The translations under genes were made by a program, and so were the position numbers. A stretch of DNA of 45,971 nt, taken from Candidatus Woesearchaeota archaeon (lineage in GTDB: Archaea > Nanobdellota > Nanobdellia > Pacearchaeales > GW2011-AR1). The stretch spans positions 1-45,971 of the forward strand of contig CAZKUJ010000001.1 in the NCBI GenBank assembly GCA_964555925.1, read 5' to 3'. The notes beneath the pieces were generated by a model. That model ran no database searches and was not told the origin of the DNA. It saw only the letters and a program-made list of their open reading frames with translations. Shown piece after piece: positions 1,902 through 10,102 of the stretch (position 1 is its first letter; each line of letters opens with the position of its first letter).

Positions 1902-2636
1902 TTAAAAAAGCAACACAATAAGTAATGCTAAAATTGCCATGTTTGCAAAATCTGTTACAGAAGTAGTTAGGGGAATTAAAAAATTGCTAGGGTCTTCTTT
2001 TTTCCGATATATGTAAATTCCCGCACGTATTGCTACAAAAAATAGAACATTTGTAATAACAACCATATCAATAAGCACAATGAAAAAAACTTTTATTGCT
2101 AATTGAAGTGAGATGCCCTCTGAAGAAAAAGAGGTAATTCCAATAGCAATTAAAGAACTTCCAATTGCACATAAAACAGCGAGTACTGTTACCTGAATAA
2201 ATAATTTTTTTACTTCTGAATTTTTCCATAATTTTCCTTTTATCTTGCCTTCATAAAGCATTGTTGAGAATCTTGAAGAAATTATTGTTCCGTAATTTCC
2301 TATCACATTATTTAGAGACGGGAGTAAAATAAGCAGGGGTATTATTGAAAGAAAAGAATTTCTTACTTGTTCTAAAGCAAGTCCTCCAAGAGAACTTATA
2401 ACAGAAGCAAGAATGAGAATTTTTATGCTTTCTTTTATTATTGTTTTTGAAACATTTGAATTTTTTCCATATTCTTTAATATAAAAAAGTGTTTGTTTTG
2501 AAATCTTATGTTCTTTGTGAACTTTGCGTAGTTCTGGATGAAATTTTTTTCTTTTTAAAGAGACAATTTTCAATAAGTGTTTGGGTGCGCGACTAAGGGC
2601 TTTTTTTAAATTATGGTGATTTGTTTTTTCTTTCAT
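1902..2636 (-). CDS. MgtE/SLC41-type divalent cation transporter, membrane domain only, with basic N-terminal extension
   Basis: 244 aa. LLPSLNNVIGNYGTIISSRFST and C-terminal EDPSNFLIPLTTSVTDFANMAIL match the MgtE TM-domain signatures (D-P-x-x-x-x-P-x-x-T-x-x-x-D). Confidence 0.65.
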   Translation of the reverse strand: MKEKTNHHNLKKALSRAPKHLLKIVSLKRKKFHPELRKVHKEHKISKQTLFYIKEYGKNSNVSKTIIKESIKILILASVISSLGGLALEQVRNSFLSIIPLLILLPSLNNVIGNYGTIISSRFSTMLYEGKIKGKLWKNSEVKKLFIQVTVLAVLCAIGSSLIAIGITSFSSEGISLQLAIKVFFIVLIDMVVITNVLFFVAIRAGIYIYRKKEDPSNFLIPLTTSVTDFANMAILALLIVLLF

Positions 2637-2641
2637 TTTAA

Positions 2642-3202
2642 TTATATCAATAAAAAGACGACCAGGAGGAGGGAAACAATGCTTGTTACATCTCCTACTG
2701 TCATTATGAACGGGCCAATTATGTTGTTTGGATCATGTCCTTTCTTGAAGATGTATATTGTAGCAAAAAGAGTAAGGGGTGTTAAGATAAAGTTTGATAA
2801 TATTCCTGCTAAAAAAGGTATTAAAATTATTAGTGGAGTCAGACTACCCATAATAAAGTAATTGAATAAAAAAGCTATTAATCCCAGAACTAAAGATACA
2901 ATTATTCCCAACATGAATGAGCCGCGGATATTTCCTTTAATTAATTGACTATGGGTTTCTTTGGGATTTATTACTCTAAGGAAAAGTCCTGAACTTATTC
3001 GTGAAGCAAATGTTCCACTTATGCTTCCCCTCATGGCCATAAAACCAGGAAGAATTATTAACATTCCGGGTATGAGAAAAATTTTGTCTGTATAAACAGC
3101 AAGAACAATTCCTGCGATTAGGCCGCCAATAATCGCGAAAAATTGAGCAGAAAGTATTTCCTTGAAACCTTTGTCAAATAATTTACTAGTTTTTTCTTCC
3201 AT
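2642..3202 (-). CDS. MgtE/SLC41-type divalent cation transporter, membrane domain only
   Basis: 186 aa. PGFMAMRGSISGTFASRISSGL and HDPNNIIGPFIMTVGDVTSIVSL. Paralog of the adjacent gene, 5-nt spacing. Confidence 0.7.
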   Translation of the reverse strand: MEEKTSKLFDKGFKEILSAQFFAIIGGLIAGIVLAVYTDKIFLIPGMLIILPGFMAMRGSISGTFASRISSGLFLRVINPKETHSQLIKGNIRGSFMLGIIVSLVLGLIAFLFNYFIMGSLTPLIILIPFLAGILSNFILTPLTLFATIYIFKKGHDPNNIIGPFIMTVGDVTSIVSLLLVVFLLI

Positions 3203-3284: not shown

Positions 3285-3920
3285 CTAATTCGGTTTTGCT
3301 CCCCTGCATAATTTATTTTTTACTTTATCAAAAATTTCTTGTGAAAGAATGCTCTCGTGCTCTCCTTGAGATTCCTCCTTGGCAAATTTTACTTTGCCAA
3401 GATATGTTGTATTCTGTAGTAATTTTTTTATGCCTGAAGTAGTCATATTATAATTTTTTGCTAGTCTTGTTAAGGATATCTTCTCATTTAAGAAAAGGTC
3501 ATAGATTTTTTTGACTTCTTCTGCTTCTTCTTCATCAATTACTAATTTTTTATTTATCAGTTTGTAACCTTTTGGTGCTTTTGTGATATGTCTGCCTGTT
3601 TTAAAAGCATTATTCATACCTGTTTTTGTTTTTTTAGAGATAGAGTAATCTGATTTTCTGAAAGTTTCTAAGAGTTTACTATCTATTTTCTCTGAAAGGT
3701 ATTTTTTAAACTCCTTTTCTGTATCTGGAGCATGTTTATGACATATAGAACAGAGAGTTGAAAGATTGGTAAGTTCATTCAATCCGTTAAAAACTTTAGG
3801 ATTAATATGATGAATTTCTAATTCTTCACCACTTGTATCTTTAAATCCACATTTTTTACAGTTAAATTTGTCTCTTTCCAAGACCTCCTTAACTAATTTT
3901 AATGGAAGATTAATTTTCAT
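3285..3920 (-). CDS. HNH endonuclease domain fused to a serine-recombinase-type 'recombinase' DNA-binding domain (no catalytic Ser domain)
   Basis: 211 aa. N-terminal CKKCG...EIHHINP...N..TLCSICHKH (HNH with CxxC pairs). Then TKAPKGYKL-x-VIDEEEAEEVKKIYDLF...SLTRLAKNYN...GIKKLLQNTTYLGKV, parallel to the recombinase domain of the upstream ORF. Overlaps that ORF by 11 nt. Confidence 0.65.
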   Translation of the reverse strand: MKINLPLKLVKEVLERDKFNCKKCGFKDTSGEELEIHHINPKVFNGLNELTNLSTLCSICHKHAPDTEKEFKKYLSEKIDSKLLETFRKSDYSISKKTKTGMNNAFKTGRHITKAPKGYKLINKKLVIDEEEAEEVKKIYDLFLNEKISLTRLAKNYNMTTSGIKKLLQNTTYLGKVKFAKEESQGEHESILSQEIFDKVKNKLCRGAKPN

Positions 3921-4677
3921 TTTGCCCTACCTGCATAGATTTATTAAAGATTTCTTCGTCTATCAAAGCAGGATGTTTTCCTGGATATAAATTTCCCTTA
4001 TATTTTATTTTACCTGTATAGGTGGGATTCCTTATTATTTGGTATAACGTTGATGAAGGGATATTAAATTTTTGACATATTTCTTTATAATTAATTCCAG
4101 CATTCCACATTTCAAAAATCTCTTTTACTTTTTCTGCATTTTCTGGATGTTTGACTAACTTTTTATCTTGGTATATATAACCAAAAGGGGCCCTATAAAG
4201 AACTTCCCCTAACTTTATCTTTCTCTCAAAAGACAATTGCACTCTTTCTTTTACCATTCCTCTTTCTAATTGTGCAAAGACTCCAATTATCTGAAAGAAG
4301 GCTTCCCCCATAGCAGAAGTTGTATCTATTTGTTCTGTAACAGAAGTAAAATTGATGTTCTTTGTTTTCAAATCTTCTAAAATAGTTATTAAATCTTTGA
4401 GTTTTCTAGAAAATCTATCAATTTTGTAAACTAAAATAATATCAAACTTTTTTTCTTGTGCATCTTTTAATAGGAGTTCTAAAGCAGGCCGATTTAAGCT
4501 TCCTGCAGAAAATCCTGCATCTTTGTAAATCTTAAATATTTCCCATTCTCTTGCATCACAGAAGCTTTTACATTTATCTATCTGAGCTTCAACACTTAAA
4601 CCTTCTTTTGCCTGTTCTTCTGTTGAAACTCTGGAATAAATAGCTACTTTGGGTTTTGATGTTTTTTTTGAATTCAT
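3910..4677 (-). CDS. serine recombinase (resolvase catalytic domain + recombinase domain, short form)
   Basis: 255 aa. VAIYSRVSTEEQ catalytic Ser motif, YKDAGFSAGSLNRP, VYKIDRFSR, FAQLERGMVKERV (E-helix). Then APFGYIY...AEKVKEIFEMW...STLYQIIRNPTYTGK recombinase domain. Confidence 0.85.
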   Translation of the reverse strand: MNSKKTSKPKVAIYSRVSTEEQAKEGLSVEAQIDKCKSFCDAREWEIFKIYKDAGFSAGSLNRPALELLLKDAQEKKFDIILVYKIDRFSRKLKDLITILEDLKTKNINFTSVTEQIDTTSAMGEAFFQIIGVFAQLERGMVKERVQLSFERKIKLGEVLYRAPFGYIYQDKKLVKHPENAEKVKEIFEMWNAGINYKEICQKFNIPSSTLYQIIRNPTYTGKIKYKGNLYPGKHPALIDEEIFNKSMQVGQNEN

Positions 4678-5074
4678 TTTCTCTTTTTATCCGTAAACTT
4701 AGGGTCTTCTTTTCTTGTAAGGGTTCCCTTCCTGCTATGAATTTATAACCTTATTGGAAAGAAACTATATAAATATTGTGATTTTTAATTGAAAAAACGC
4801 CGAGAATACATTTTGTGCAAAGCTTTAAGGGGTTTTTAGCTGTTTTTGTGGTTTTCGATAGATTCCCCTGCTCTGGACTGTTCATTCTAACCCTAGAGGA
4901 TGAACATCCTCATAATTTTCTAAACTTTTATTTGCACTTAGGTGAGCTTTGTTAATGGTTAAAATAAAGGAGTGTATCAAAAAAATTTTGGTTGAAGAAA
5001 GAGTATAGAAAAAAACTAAAAATAAAAAATAAAAAAGTGTCTGCTATGGCTTGGTTGAAGGAATTAATTTAAAT

Positions 5075-5248
5075 TTATTTCCTTTTTTTGCTGTAATTAT
5101 AATTTCTTATCAGCTTGCCTATACCTATGACCAAGACGCCAATTGCAATCAACCAGTCTGATGTGGCGCTGCCAAGGTCAATGCCAATCAAAGGTAATAC
5201 TAACAAAACACCAAGAATTGTTACCACCCACGCAGTTAATTTTGCCAT
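5075..5248 (-). CDS. small two-helix membrane protein (57 aa), not in the ORF track
   Basis: ATG at 5248 preceded by GGAGGTG 5 nt upstream. Translates MAKLTAWVVTILGVLLVLPLIGIDLGSATSDWLIAIGVLVIGIGKLIRNYNYSKKRK. Locally higher G+C than surroundings. Confidence 0.45.
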   Translation of the reverse strand: MAKLTAWVVTILGVLLVLPLIGIDLGSATSDWLIAIGVLVIGIGKLIRNYNYSKKRK

Positions 5249-5660
5249 GTGACACCTCCTTCTTTTTATTAAGAAATTTAATGATTATAAATCTTTCTCT
5301 GTCAAAAATTAGTTAAAAATTGTTTAAAATTGCTTGCTAAAATTTTTATTAATCAATTTTTTACGCGGGATTGTGCACTAAGGTGGTCTTTATGAACAGC
5401 AAATAAACTAGGGCCTTGAAGCAAGGAAAAAGGCCTGCCAGAAATTTAACCGAGAAGGAACGCAAATCGCACCTTATTTCTTGATTGGTTGGCTAGGCTG
5501 TTTGGGTGTTTGGGGGTGTTTAAACAGGCTGTTTGGGTGTATTTTTTGGTGCTTTTTCCAATAGAAGTGCTGGGGCTTCGACACATTTTTTAGATATTGA
5601 GTAAAAATTTTTAGAGATTTTTTTAGGAATTGATGTCTCTTTGGCGTCGAAAAAGAAAAG

Positions 5661-5690: not shown

Positions 5691-6305
5691 ATGTTTGGTC
5701 TTTTTTTTAGAAAAAAAGAGGTAGAAAATTTAAAAGAAGATACAAAAAGGGGTTTTGAGTCTGTAAAAAAAGACATTGTCTCGCTTAGCGCGTGGATCAA
5801 ACACCTTGATTCTGAAAAAAATTTGCAAAAAAAAGAGATTGAAGAGTTAAAAAGTTTTTTATCGTCGATGAATGGGGAATTGGAGGGATTAAAAAATGTT
5901 ATCTCTATTATGAACCAACTAAAACCAGGCAAGCAAAATCAAACAACCAAACAGGTGTTTGATAAACAAACAGGTGTTTATGCTGTTCAAACAGGTGTTC
6001 AAACAGGTGTTCAAACACCAAATTTTGACCAATTTTCAGTAACTGAACGGGCTATTGTTTGGGTCTTATTAAATTCAGACATGCGATTGAGCTATGATGA
6101 TATTGCCTCAATTTTGGGGAAAGAGAGATCTACTATTAGGGGGCATTTAAACAGGATAAAACAGAAGAGTAATGGTTTAATTGAAGAAATAATTGAAAAA
6201 AATGGGAAAAAAAGGGTTTTTGTGTCTGAAAATATGCGGGAAAAGCTACTCAAAAAGTCAAAAGTGAGAGTTAGAAGTAAGAAACCCCAAGAGGATTCTG
6301 CTTAA
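5691..6305 (+). CDS. coiled-coil / Q-T-rich linker / C-terminal winged-HTH DNA-binding protein
   Basis: 204 aa. N-terminal heptad-like region, tandem QTGV repeats, C-terminal FSVTERAIVWVLL...SYDDIASILGKERSTIRGHLNRIKQK. Paralog of 6464..7207. Confidence 0.6.
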   Translation: MFGLFFRKKEVENLKEDTKRGFESVKKDIVSLSAWIKHLDSEKNLQKKEIEELKSFLSSMNGELEGLKNVISIMNQLKPGKQNQTTKQVFDKQTGVYAVQTGVQTGVQTPNFDQFSVTERAIVWVLLNSDMRLSYDDIASILGKERSTIRGHLNRIKQKSNGLIEEIIEKNGKKRVFVSENMREKLLKKSKVRVRSKKPQEDSA

Positions 6306-6463: not shown

Positions 6464-7207
6464 TTATATATCTCTTAACTGCAAAATTGTTTGAAGCGTG
6501 GCTATTTTTTTAAGATTTGCAGATACTGAGAGGTGGATTGTTTTATTGTTTATTTTCTTTTTCTCGACGGGAATTCCTTTTTTTATTAGCCTGCCCACAT
6601 AATCCCTTATTGAGCTCTCTGAAAGGCCTAATCTTTGGGCAAGAGTCCTATACTCTGTATGGCCTTGCTCTTCGTCAAGCTGATAGAGTGCAGAAAAGAC
6701 CAGAATCTCTTGATCTGTAAGTCTTTTGAATTTTAACCTTATTTCCTTTTTTATATTATCTAAAGATTCTAGTATCATTGCGGCATTATCAATGACATTC
6801 TCTTTGGTCTTTTCTTGAAGAGGGAATAAAAAAGGGGTTGTTTCGCCTTGATTTATGTGTTGGGTGTCTGTTTGTCTGTTTGTCTGTTTGTCTGTTGGAA
6901 CCCCTACATTTCCTATGGAAAGGGGGTTATCTTGGTCTTTTGGCGGCTTAAAAGGGGGTTTTTCTATATCCCTTTTCTTATGTGTCTGAATTTTGTGTTG
7001 GATTGCTGATGTTTGGGTCGGGGTGTGTTGGACTATGTTGGTGGTTGTTTTTTCTGAAATCTTTGTATTAACATCTGATAAAATCTGTAAAATTTTAGAC
7101 ATTTCTTCGTGTGTTTTGTTTAGATTCTGCTTAAGTAAAAAGATCTCCTTATAAAGAGCCCCCACGTCGGCTCTAACTTTCTCAAATGCTTCTTTTACTT
7201 TATCCAT
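6464..7207 (-). CDS. coiled-coil / Q-T-rich linker / C-terminal winged-HTH DNA-binding protein (paralog)
   Basis: 247 aa. EKVRADVGALYKEIFLL aligns with ESVKKDIVSLSAWIKHL of the 5691 gene. C-terminal LTDQEILVFSALY...YRTLAQRLGLSESSIRDYVGRLIKKG aligns with its HTH. Confidence 0.6.
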   Translation of the reverse strand: MDKVKEAFEKVRADVGALYKEIFLLKQNLNKTHEEMSKILQILSDVNTKISEKTTTNIVQHTPTQTSAIQHKIQTHKKRDIEKPPFKPPKDQDNPLSIGNVGVPTDKQTNRQTDTQHINQGETTPFLFPLQEKTKENVIDNAAMILESLDNIKKEIRLKFKRLTDQEILVFSALYQLDEEQGHTEYRTLAQRLGLSESSIRDYVGRLIKKGIPVEKKKINNKTIHLSVSANLKKIATLQTILQLRDI

Positions 7208-8385: not shown

Positions 8386-8890
<505 letters not shown>

Positions 8891-10102
8891 ATGGGCAAGG
8901 AATTGGATGAAATTTTTGAATCTTTTGAAGAAAACAGGATCTTTAAAGACAGATCTATTCTGCAATCGAATTACATTCCTGCAGAAATTCCCCATAGGGG
9001 TGACCAAATAAAACAAATCGCTTCAATTCTTGCGCCGGTTTTAAAAGGGGAAAGACCGAGCAATATTTTTGTTTATGGAAAAACCGGGACAGGCAAAACT
9101 CTTTCAATTTTATATCTTAAGGATGAACTTTTAAAGAGGATAAAAAAAGAGAGTGGCGTCTCATTAAGGATAGAGTATATTAATTGTAAATTAAGAAAAG
9201 TTTCAGATACAGAGTACAGGATTCTTGCGGAATTAATAAAAAAACTTGGGGGGAAAGTCCCAAACACCGGATTACCAACAGAAACAGTTTATAACAAATT
9301 TATAGACCTCATTGATTCTGAAAAACAAATTCTTATTTTGATTCTTGATGAAATTGATCAAGCAGTTAAAAAAATTTCCACAGATTTTCTCTATAATTTA
9401 ACTCGGCTTAATTCAGAGTTATCTAAAACACAGATTGGTCTTGTTGGAATAAGTAACGATCTTACTTTTTTAGAAGGAATAGATCCTCGTGTAAGAAGTT
9501 CCTTGTCAGAAGAAGAGGTTGTTTTTTCGCCATATAATGCCTTGCAGCTCCAAGAAATTCTAACTCATAGGGCAAAACCTGCTTTTAAAGAAAACGTTGT
9601 TGAAGAGGGCGTTATTGCCAAATGCGCAGCATTTGCAGCTAGAGAGCACGGAGATGCCCGTAGAGCCTTAGATTTGTTGCGAATCGCAGGAGAGCTCGCA
9701 GAAAGGGAAAATTCTCCTAAAATTCTTTTGAGGCATATAGATGAGGCGAATGTAAAGATTGAAAGAGAAAAAATTTTAGAGGTGGTTAAATCAGAACCAA
9801 AACAATTCCAATATGTTCTTTATTCTATAATAAAGCTCTTAGAAAAAGAGGTGGGCCCGATTTTTACAGGAGATGTTTACAATTGTTATCAAGAAATTTG
9901 CGGCAAAAATAAATCAGAGGTGCTGACTCAAAGAAGGGTAGGGGACATAATTCAAGAATTTGATATGCTTGGAATCATCAATGTAAAGGTTATTTCAAAA
10001 GGGAGGGGGGGGAGAATGAGGGAAATAAAATTAGCAATATCCAAAACATTAATTGAAAAAACAAAGAAAATAATTGAAGAATCCCTTGATTATAATTTTT
10101 AG
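8891..10102 (+). CDS. cdc6: Orc1/Cdc6 replication initiator
   Basis: 403 aa. Walker A GKTGTGKT, Walker B LILDEID, sensor regions, GDARRALDLLR and a C-terminal winged helix. Confidence 0.95.
   Translation: MGKELDEIFESFEENRIFKDRSILQSNYIPAEIPHRGDQIKQIASILAPVLKGERPSNIFVYGKTGTGKTLSILYLKDELLKRIKKESGVSLRIEYINCKLRKVSDTEYRILAELIKKLGGKVPNTGLPTETVYNKFIDLIDSEKQILILILDEIDQAVKKISTDFLYNLTRLNSELSKTQIGLVGISNDLTFLEGIDPRVRSSLSEEEVVFSPYNALQLQEILTHRAKPAFKENVVEEGVIAKCAAFAAREHGDARRALDLLRIAGELAERENSPKILLRHIDEANVKIEREKILEVVKSEPKQFQYVLYSIIKLLEKEVGPIFTGDVYNCYQEICGKNKSEVLTQRRVGDIIQEFDMLGIINVKVISKGRGGRMREIKLAISKTLIEKTKKIIEESLDYNF

Follow-up and report, generated by a model that had tools for sequence, protein, structure and literature searches.

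A serine recombinase and an HNH nuclease joined to a recombinase DNA-binding domain: a possible homing-like cassette at an origin-proximal locus of Nanoarchaeota

Why should a nuclease carry the DNA-binding domain of a serine recombinase, and why should it be encoded directly behind a gene for another such recombinase? The question is raised by two genes on the minus strand of contig CAZKUJ010000001.1 (assembly GCA_964555925.1), from a Candidatus Woesearchaeota archaeon, of which positions 1 to 45,971 were analysed and are here called the window. The upstream open reading frame (ORF), at 3910..4677, encodes a serine recombinase of 255 aa, SerB. The downstream one, at 3285-3920, encodes a protein of 211 aa, HNH-RD, in which an HNH nuclease domain, a remnant of recombinase helix E and a recombinase domain (RD) follow one another. 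The two ORFs overlap by 11 nt (3910-3920), as had been stated in an initial annotation made from the letters of the window alone. That annotation had proposed a homing or targeting module or, alternatively, an unusual two-component integrase, and the former is still the best-supported reading. It is quite possible, though short of probable, that the pair belongs to a laterally moving, homing-like cassette whose nuclease fuses to the DNA-binding domain of a resident recombinase, and whose SerB replaces either the tyrosine recombinase XerA or a different serine recombinase, SerA.

Judged by its domains, SerB belongs to the serine recombinase superfamily, as first annotated. The catalytic domain (Resolvase, PF00239) covers residues 11-157 with 140 bits against a Pfam cut-off of 23.3 and includes the motif YSRVSTEEQ, and it is followed by a short Recombinase domain (PF07508, residues 178-246, 41.8 bits, cut-off 21.1) of the type referred to here as subtype B. 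Y14, Arg16, the nucleophile Ser18, Q22 and the pair Asp87-Arg88 are invariant in 119 homologues. The protein stops after the RD, with no zinc-ribbon match in Pfam even at an E value of 1, which bears out the earlier remark that the terminal module of the large serine integrases is missing. Because SerB has neither zinc ribbon nor coiled coil, and is 255 aa long where the typical length is more than 400 aa, it is not a large serine integrase. The CcrB, CcrC and XisF models cover it by their first ~200-270 positions only and score 91-152 bits against cut-offs of 375-900.

In HNH-RD it is the HNH domain that stands where the catalytic serine domain would be, and this part of the initial description has held. 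The domain takes up ~aa 1-85 (3666..3920, minus strand) and is recognised from Pfam, from Foldseek and from the conservation of its motif, CxxC...HH...N...CxxCH; PF01844 matches residues 21-63 with 38 bits (cut-off 21.4). In 111 full-length homologues the four Cys and N52 are always present, H37 is kept in 107, and H38 and H61 in 96 each. The residues of a beta-beta-alpha-metal HNH endonuclease (catalytic His, Asn and metal-binding His) are found together with the CxxC...CxxC zinc site. The best sequence matches of the domain in the PDB and NCBIfam are the HNH domains of IscB. Membership of a known defence system was considered and rejected, PADLOC yielding generic HNH matches only.

The HNH domain is followed by a linker (3579..3665, minus strand) in which, according to alignments, the C-terminal portion of helix E of serine recombinases is retained (TFRKSDYSISKKTKTGM; the counterpart in SerA is FAEFERNIIGDRTKFGM); in it F87, R88, S93, G101 and M102 are invariant, or nearly so, among homologues. 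The remainder of the gene (3285..3578, minus strand), from APKGY at aa ~115 to the C-terminal tail and stop codon, encodes a PF07508 domain of subtype A, or RD_A, with 34.4 bits over residues 130-204 (cut-off 21.1). All four domain matches in the two proteins exceed the curated cut-offs. An AlphaFold2 model of HNH-RD has a pLDDT (predicted local distance difference test) of 86. In Foldseek its RD matches that of the A118/LI serine integrase (4KIS, 6DNW) with an E value of 1e-7, 34% identity and a root-mean-square deviation of ~2.2 A, and its N-terminal part matches the HNH nickases and nucleases 4H9D, Cap5 and McrA. Since an HNH domain, a helix-E remnant and an RD like that of LI integrase are apparent both from sequence and from the model, HNH-RD is most aptly regarded as a serine recombinase in which an HNH nuclease has taken the place of the catalytic domain. 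The initial annotation had also read its C-terminal half as a second copy of the linker and recombinase domain of SerB. The homology stands, as the two C-terminal halves align over 106 residues with 30% identity (E 8e-17), but the domains are of different subtypes and do not constitute a matched pair.

Motif conservation and nonsynonymous divergence (dN) indicate that SerB and HNH-RD are real genes under purifying selection. In pairs of loci with saturated synonymous divergence (dS), SerB has a dN of 0.08-0.14 and the HNH domain with its linker one of 0.13-0.20, compared with 0.18-0.19 for Orc1 in all but one of six pairs. Across all pairs the dN of SerB is 0.04-0.14, and the exceptional Orc1 pair, between loci L013 and L001, gives 0.086. 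SerB is represented by more than 120 clusters at 75-99% identity. HNH-RD has ~290 homologues, nearly all of ~205 aa with the same architecture, and every named one is from Nanoarchaeota or Pacearchaeota; as a profile search of 1.8 billion representatives returned just 27 clusters below 1e-30, the family is small and restricted to a clade.

The surroundings of the pair proved informative. The window is chromosomal archaeal DNA, with Orc1/Cdc6, both PolD subunits and a stretch of 4-11% GC beside Orc1. A search for the same gene pair elsewhere recovered 17 loci in Pacearchaeota-like Nanoarchaeota, always ~4.5 kb from Orc1/oriC, and no close relatives in viral contigs. In every recovered locus the pair is preceded by the same string of genes, namely PolD, Orc1, a PRC-barrel protein, ORFs of ~140, 91 and 247 aa, and, on the other strand, a gene for a protein of 204 aa, and between this last gene and the pair lies a tract of 1-2 kb with variable small ORFs. 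With four purpose-built hidden Markov models, one per domain, three contents of this slot were distinguished. The first is SerB with HNH-RD, in the 17 loci mentioned. The second, in ~30 loci, is a single SerA, a serine catalytic domain fused to RD_A, the PF07508 subtype of HNH-RD; the RDs of SerA score 150-175 bits on the RD_A model against ~80 on that of the SerB RD. The third is a tyrosine recombinase of 275 aa that exceeds the cut-off of the NCBIfam equivalog XerA_Arch (NF040815, 236 against 220 bits) and occupies the same syntenic slot in three contigs of 0.40-0.65 Mb and in ~10 metagenome loci. Directly after XerA there follows an HNH-RD, an RD with a degenerate HNH, an RD-only gene or a free-standing HNH of 97-98 aa. 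An RD_A protein and an array of short DNA sites are common to all three configurations, and SerA loci are without any HNH. XerA and a serine recombinase were seen together in no recovered locus, and tblastn found no tyrosine recombinase in the 46-kb window. From this distribution we infer that SerB replaced XerA/dif or SerA.

The association of SerB with HNH-RD is variable. Across independent contigs the junction of the two genes varies between a gap of 1 nt and an overlap of 23 nt, the overlap in the partial contig L026 being 38 nt. SerB of L065 is without an intact HNH-RD, only an RD gene with degenerate HNH (hnh*) being present ~600 bp downstream, and in L022 another gene separates the two. 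Free HNH genes at 7831-8124 of L173 and 7834-8130 of L174, both near-complete Nanoarchaeota contigs, abut the stop codon of xerA and are homologous to the HNH portion of the L028-type HNH-RD fusion, with ~70% in the core. That fusion is the free-HNH type joined to a coiled-coil RD-only type, and for this reason at least two independent HNH-RD fusions are indicated. By sequence comparison the RD of HNH-RD is orthologous to the SerA RD of sister genomes, and the same HNH, free or fused, also follows XerA. The nuclease is consequently not a partner specific to SerB.

The history of the locus is that of a mosaic. A 1.2-kb unit consisting of promoter, leader, serB, HNH domain and linker (3570..4790, minus strand) has moved recently between lineages, and its right edge coincides with a domain boundary inside a gene. 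The block is 82-97% identical to L008, and sliding identity places its edges at ~4790, just upstream of the TATA box, and ~3570, at the APKGY start of the RD. Outside the block the identity with L008 falls to ~40% on the left and to 52-78% on the right, in the RD. SerB, HNH and linker of the window are all nearest to L008 (97/89, 85 and 90%, respectively), while no match of the RD core exceeds 63% identity. The dS between the two loci is 0.47 for SerB and 0.67 for HNH and linker, as against 1.85 for the RD core, and 1.2-2.2 overall for RD core, 204-aa gene and Orc1, so that core and flanks have reached saturation. It is because of this low dS within the block, and of its sharp edges, that a recent movement of the cassette is deduced.

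Similar boundaries are apparent between sister loci of different configuration. Their DNA homology stops just after array site 1 and restarts at ~residue 112 of the RD_A coding sequence, at the level of identity of the flanks; the junction is seen where SerB with HNH-RD is compared with SerA (L013/L033) and where XerA with HNH-RD is compared with SerA (L023/L084, L028/L086). The three configurations are interleaved on the tree of the 204-aa neighbour protein, as are SerA and HNH-RD on that of the RD_A domain. Sporadic presence and lateral movement together with adjacent DNA, which are expected of a homing endonuclease, were thus both found, in this interleaving and in the low-dS block. The identity of SerB is moderately correlated with that of host genes (rho 0.5). 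A strictly vertical, slow inheritance of SerB was considered and is half right; selection is strong, but the rho of 0.5 and the low dS between the window and L008 do not agree with it.

Each of the three recombinases has DNA sites of its own kind beside it. The 85 bp upstream of serB have 86-91% DNA identity while the surrounding proteins differ by 30-50%. The order of elements in this leader is TATA box, B-like half-site, the palindrome TAAGGG-AA/TT-CCCTTA, ~19 bp, CCCTAAGTTTAC and ribosome-binding site. In the window a TATA-box-like element, TTTATATA (4766..4773, minus strand), invariant in 16 aligned SerB loci, is the putative promoter element of the serB/HNH-RD operon. The B-like half-site CCAATAAGGTTATAA (4742..4756, minus strand), in conserved alignment columns, may likewise be bound, and the B-type palindrome GAAGGG-AA-CCCTTA (4718..4731) is by association a candidate site for SerB binding and crossover. 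The A-type half-site CCCTAAGTTTAC (4693..4704, minus strand), just upstream of the ribosome-binding site, could be bound by RD_A. There is a single AAGGGWWCCCTT in the 46-kb window, as in each SerB locus, and its position is always upstream of serB. Since RNAalifold gave -2.75 kcal/mol and no covarying pair for the leader, it has been treated as a set of DNA sites. An invertible segment was also looked for and rejected, there being no convincing inverted repeats around the pair and no second B palindrome in the 46 kb.

The upstream regions of the other configurations are built differently. SerA loci carry TATA-CTTAGGG-CA/TG-CCCTAAG and then, before the ribosome-binding site, a half-site CCCTAAGT, as in SerB loci; the A-type palindrome was found in SerA loci only (20). 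XerA loci have a dif-like site, TTCGCACAA-CCTATA-TTGTGCGAA, immediately upstream of xerA, then a TATA box and then a XerA half-site. The B-type palindrome is in no canonical SerA or XerA locus, and hybrids in the SerA loci L074, L076 and L083 fit both A and B patterns. The three palindromes therefore sort almost perfectly by recombinase type, with the dif-like site best in XerA loci. A vestige of the latter, CTTTGCACAA-AATGTA-TTCTCGGCG, is present in the window at 4798..4822 (minus strand), with 8/9 matching positions in the left arm and 4/9 in the right; it is decayed also in L005, L007 and some SerA loci, and still good in L039 and L086. The expectation that SerB and HNH-RD recognise related DNA is not supported, as their RD subtypes are 30% identical and go with separate palindromes. 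At the centre of the palindromes, SerB loci have the dinucleotide AA or TT and SerA loci have CA or TG, never a palindromic one; this limitation to reverse complements is as expected if it were the two-base crossover overlap of a serine recombinase. A palindrome match on the viral contig L093 is put down to chance, as this is an unrelated bacterial phage with a canonical integrase of 468 aa.

The array consists of sites of 26 nt (consensus TTAACTAAGCTAACCTAAGTGCACAA), of which 1-5 copies are present in nearly every locus that spans the region, whatever its configuration. In the window copy 1 (…CCACCTTAGTGCACAA) is at 5371..5396 and copy 2, of the AACAAAGCTCACCTAAGTGCAAAT type and located by a position weight matrix scan, at 4930..4955, both on the minus strand. 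The sites are co-oriented with the recombinase gene and lie between it and the 204-aa gene, with rare exceptions (opposite strand in L022 and L042; low-scoring matches in L017 and at the start of serB or serA in L022, L065 and L083). Because their arm spacing of 5 bp is one base shorter than that of the SerA palindrome (6 bp), the array sites are viewed as probable binding sites, either operators or accessory sites, and not as crossover sites.

How the 1.2-kb unit moved we infer as follows. SerB would be the working site-specific recombinase of the locus; as a dimer it would act on TAAGGG-AA-CCCTTA within its leader, much as a resolvase acts on a res- or dif-like site next to its gene. A functional recombinase is suggested because the protein is intact and constrained, has its own dyad site in the leader and takes the position of XerA beside a decaying dif-like site. 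It would do the job of XerA/dif or of SerA, which most likely would be the resolution of replicon dimers together with repression of its own operon. HNH-RD would be a former serine recombinase, and with the HNH domain in the position of the serine domain relative to helix E and RD it would be expected to bind half-sites of CCCTAAG type and to make its nick or cut next to these, at the place where the serine enzyme would act. That the A-type palindrome is its target is suggested by the shared RD subtype. A complete CCCTAAG palindrome, with both arms, is confined to the SerA promoter, so that the nuclease would cut genomes that are free of the cassette. Repair from a cassette-bearing copy could then use the upstream region as left and the RD coding sequence as right homology arm, so that serB and HNH might supplant the SerA promoter and catalytic domain, with the HNH fused in frame to the resident RD; repair of this kind would lead to the observed edges of the block and to the in-frame HNH-RD fusion. 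A selfish cassette of homing type would in this manner supply a substitute for the recombinase that it destroys. The free, fused, degenerate (Cys kept, His lost) and RD-only or lost states of the HNH resemble, by analogy, a homing cycle, and the occurrence of SerB and HNH-RD apart from each other (L065, L022) supports their separability.

Several points weigh against this reading. By dS a clearly recent transfer is confined to the window and L008, the other mosaics being old, and ordinary homologous exchange without a nuclease could yield the same mosaic. The interleaving is that of neighbour-joining trees of short proteins, and all assignments of sites to proteins are by co-occurrence only. 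In addition, A-type half-sites persist in the leader and array of cassette-bearing genomes, and the nuclease would need to spare them; we can only suggest that the resident sites are protected by an arm spacing of 5 bp instead of 6 bp, or by being single half-sites. In more than 100 lineages HNH-RD has stayed intact and under constraint, which fits a host function equally well as a recurrent invader. Among the best 120 of 2762 XerA matches there was no SerB on the same contig, which is not conclusive. The wider proposition would be that a homing nuclease without a DNA-binding domain of its own fuses in frame to that of a resident recombinase, gains specificity for uninvaded alleles and repays with a substitute recombinase, the Xer/dif function of a DPANN lineage thus having been taken over by serine recombinases at an origin-proximal site. 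Stated in this breadth it is, in our judgement, rather doubtful.

A cooperative system of two parts is the alternative that survives best, though it too is rather unlikely. HNH-RD, together with its RD-only relatives, would here be an accessory subunit on CCCTAAG sites beside the crossover site and in the array; it might build or license the synapse in the way of res subsites II/III or of PepA/ArgR at cer, and the nick made by the HNH might aid the recombinase encoded upstream. The composite conserved leader, in which a B half-site and a B palindrome are combined with an A half-site ~20 bp away, is consistent with such an arrangement, as are the overlap of the genes and their presumed co-translation, the constancy at the locus of an RD_A protein with a site array in all three configurations, and purifying selection on both genes. 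That HNH and RD occur separately and have been fused at least twice suggests a functional link, and a partner for archaeal XerA was left possible by Cortez et al. 2010 (PMC2958812). It is, however, difficult to see why the same HNH should then follow either a tyrosine or a serine recombinase, enzymes that are chemically unrelated, why SerB should occur without an intact HNH (L065) or separated from it (L022), why SerA loci should do without the HNH, and why the histories of cassette and RD should differ. We know of no serine or tyrosine recombinase that requires a nuclease partner. Because HNH-RD is not a specific partner of SerB, the two-component integrase of the initial annotation is unlikely in its obligate form.

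It is improbable, to a greater degree, that the RD_A proteins, HNH-RD included, are domesticated DNA-binding proteins acting as transcription regulators, with the 26-nt sites as operators of small genes, the half-site before the ribosome-binding site as the means of repressing the recombinase operon, and the HNH as mainly a zinc-finger fold. Approximately 65 of 91 array sites are 50-190 nt upstream of the start of a plus-strand ORF, as operators might be, and their 5-bp arm spacing is ill-suited to a crossover with a 2-bp stagger. SerA and SerB loci share, ahead of the ribosome-binding site, the half-site CCCTAAGT. Beside the S9-L13 ribosomal operon another paralogue, RD-only or with a degenerate HNH, is conserved, and in the wider Nanoarchaeota its surroundings are free of recombinases. 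Yet the subfamily adjacent to SerB and XerA keeps the catalytic His, the Asn and the second His in addition to the zinc ligands, and neither the mosaic boundaries nor the strict sorting of the palindromes would follow from regulation alone.

That the two genes are the integrase genes of an integrated virus, a plasmid or an element of insertion sequence type, such as an IS607-like serine transposase with a nuclease, is very unlikely indeed. The overlap of recombinase and nuclease genes recalls tnpA-tnpB of IS607, the HNH is most similar to that of IscB, and there is a variable region downstream. Against these likenesses, neither protein has a close relative in the 2.9 million viral contigs of IMG/VR, every locus has one copy of the pair, at the same chromosomal position, and the variable tract is just 2-4 kb, without structural or replication genes. 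The domain order is the reverse of that in IS607 TnpA, the scores are low (48 against 110 bits for IS607, 48 against 175 for IscB), and no Rfam RNA was found in the window. Nothing points to an integrated virus or plasmid with att sites, which the initial annotation had hoped to define by comparison with an empty site. The last alternative, a single canonical large serine recombinase split by a frameshift or sequencing error, has nothing in its favour beyond the adjacency and overlap of the ORFs and a practically negligible chance of being correct, since the two recur as separate conserved genes in 17 independent contigs with varying junctions and hence a differing relative frame, the second begins with an HNH found in no serine integrase, and zinc-ribbon or coiled-coil sequence is absent.

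Further features accompany the array and the slot. Between the two array sites of the window lies an ORF for a 57-aa membrane protein (5075..5248, minus strand), one of the small genes that vary in this region; L073 and L086 encode homologues of it. In 13 loci, among which all three configurations are represented, array site 1 is followed first by a gene for a DUF5654-like membrane protein of ~93 aa, for example in L008 (9145-9381), L039, L047, L054 and L016. The segments between sites are mostly singletons (48 of 93). A shuffling of cassettes as in integrons was entertained, and with the first gene fixed in 13 loci and the other segments mostly singletons a mobility of individual cassettes was not borne out. 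A canonical integron was likewise rejected: the recombinases are of serine type or a 275-aa XerA (216 bits on TIGR02249, below the cut-off of 265), and the sites are 26-nt motifs of duplex type without attC-like structure. A palindromic repeat, AAACAGC(C/T)GTTTAAAC, is located between the 204-aa winged-helix gene and array site 1 (window 5495-5545; L007 1410-1580). The window contains 2-3 copies of it and L007 has 5-6; it is conserved in many loci, whatever their configuration, and may be an operator for the divergent 204-aa gene or a site associated with the origin. In L007 (2570-2881) and L056 (~8800-9108) the conserved leader is separated from the start codon of the recombinase, SerB and XerA respectively, by an inserted ORF of ~103 aa for a basic zinc-ribbon protein (…KRGGYTCVIKVKCAKCNRVLFSYQKDGPGWLKRCYLNRII…) without Pfam match.

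Downstream of the pair the window has two tandem half-size genes with MgtE domains and a PD-(D/E)XK (Cas4-like) nuclease (214-882 and 1902-3202, minus strand), where most related loci have a radical-SAM gene, an RD-only gene and the S9-L13 operon instead; because of this difference the right side of the slot is considered to be rearranged in the window genome. In distant Nanoarchaeota (L049, L057, L040, L051, L067; L049 9980-10558) a degenerate HNH with RD, of 192-200 aa, has kept the four Cys and lost the catalytic His. The gene order there is an endonuclease-IV-like gene, a HAD hydrolase, the gene itself, a membrane protein and S9-L13-L18e, with neither recombinase nor array sites nearby, and the protein looks like a domesticated DNA-binding protein. 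On the other side of the slot, the genes at 5691-6305 (plus strand) and 6464-7207 (minus strand) encode conserved coiled coils with a C-terminal winged helix (weak matches to HTH_36 and DnaD_N) and always lie between Orc1 and the recombinase slot. The gene for the 247-aa protein contains an in-frame octamer repeat, TGTCTGTT, four times at 6865-6896. Directly upstream of Orc1/Cdc6 (8891-10102), the GC content is 4-11% at 8386-8890, especially 8500-8700, and inverted repeats of 34 nt (8500-8533 and 8744-8777) flank the AT-rich stretch, which is probably the unwinding element of the replication origin with origin-recognition boxes. The minimum of the cumulative GC skew of the window is at ~3-5 kb and spans the serB/HNH-RD pair. 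Neither a tRNA nor an Rfam family was detected in the window.

No description of the HNH-RD architecture, of the gene pair or of the locus was found in the searchable literature, in keeping with the initial impression that no described system has this architecture. If the homing-like reading is correct, a selfish nuclease would have a new way of obtaining and keeping target specificity, by capturing the DNA-binding domain of a host recombinase, and HNH-RD would be a natural design for programmable 'recombinase-domain nucleases'. It would also be, to our knowledge, the first known case of serine recombinases in the chromosomal place of Xer/dif in archaea, with a bearing on chromosome dimer resolution in organisms without FtsK. 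The set would be compact and experimentally tractable, with proteins of 255, 211 and ~140 aa and short DNA sites, from uncultivated Nanoarchaeota. Even without the selfish interpretation there remain the undescribed HNH-RD architecture and an undescribed locus by oriC, in which tyrosine and serine recombinases are interchangeable, an RD protein is constant and the sites of the array share one orientation.

Comparison with known systems places the locus between several of them, and it has the complete set of defining features of none among homing endonucleases, resolvase/res, Xer/dif and IS607. With the large serine integrases (A118/LI integrase, Bxb1; PDB 4KIS, 6DNW, 9IU8) SerB shares catalytic domain, helix E and PF07508, and the RD of HNH-RD superposes on that of LI integrase, but neither protein has the zinc ribbon and coiled coil, and HNH-RD has an HNH in place of the serine domain. 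Small serine resolvases act at a site adjacent to their gene, as in Tn3/gamma-delta res, Sin and the multimer resolution of RK2 by ParA. Here too the recombinase gene is directly downstream of a multi-part site of ~85 bp extending over promoter and leader, with one copy per replicon region; SerB differs in having PF07508 instead of a small helix-turn-helix (HTH) domain and in being chromosomal, origin-proximal and archaeal, and its function is a predicted one. Xer modules with a single recombinase and dif beside the gene are represented by XerS/difSL and XerH/difH, and in the sister genomes XerA with an upstream dif-like palindrome of 9+6+9 occupies the slot of SerB. In Thermococcales dif is not adjacent to xerA and is near the terminus (PMC2958812), whereas the module considered here lies beside Orc1 and, in the window, has a decayed dif-like site only and no XerA.

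IS607 elements, with TnpA and TnpB or IscB, are alike in their overlapping recombinase and nuclease genes and in the IscB-like HNH. They differ in that HNH-RD is presumably guided by a protein domain and not by RNA, has no RuvC and is accompanied by no match to a guide-RNA family; the IscB model covers the HNH part only, the domain order of TnpA is reversed, and the pair is single-copy and syntenic. Phage HNH nuclease genes are reported at boundaries of genetic exchange (PMC10448857). Free-standing HNH homing endonucleases of I-HmuI type share with the present locus the small size of the HNH gene and its place behind a conserved gene; in both cases the distribution is sporadic, some copies have degenerated, and the gene lies where a mosaic block ends. 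Cleavage is only predicted for HNH-RD, its DNA-binding part comes from a serine recombinase and not from NUMOD or HTH domains, and the cassette brings with it a substitute recombinase.

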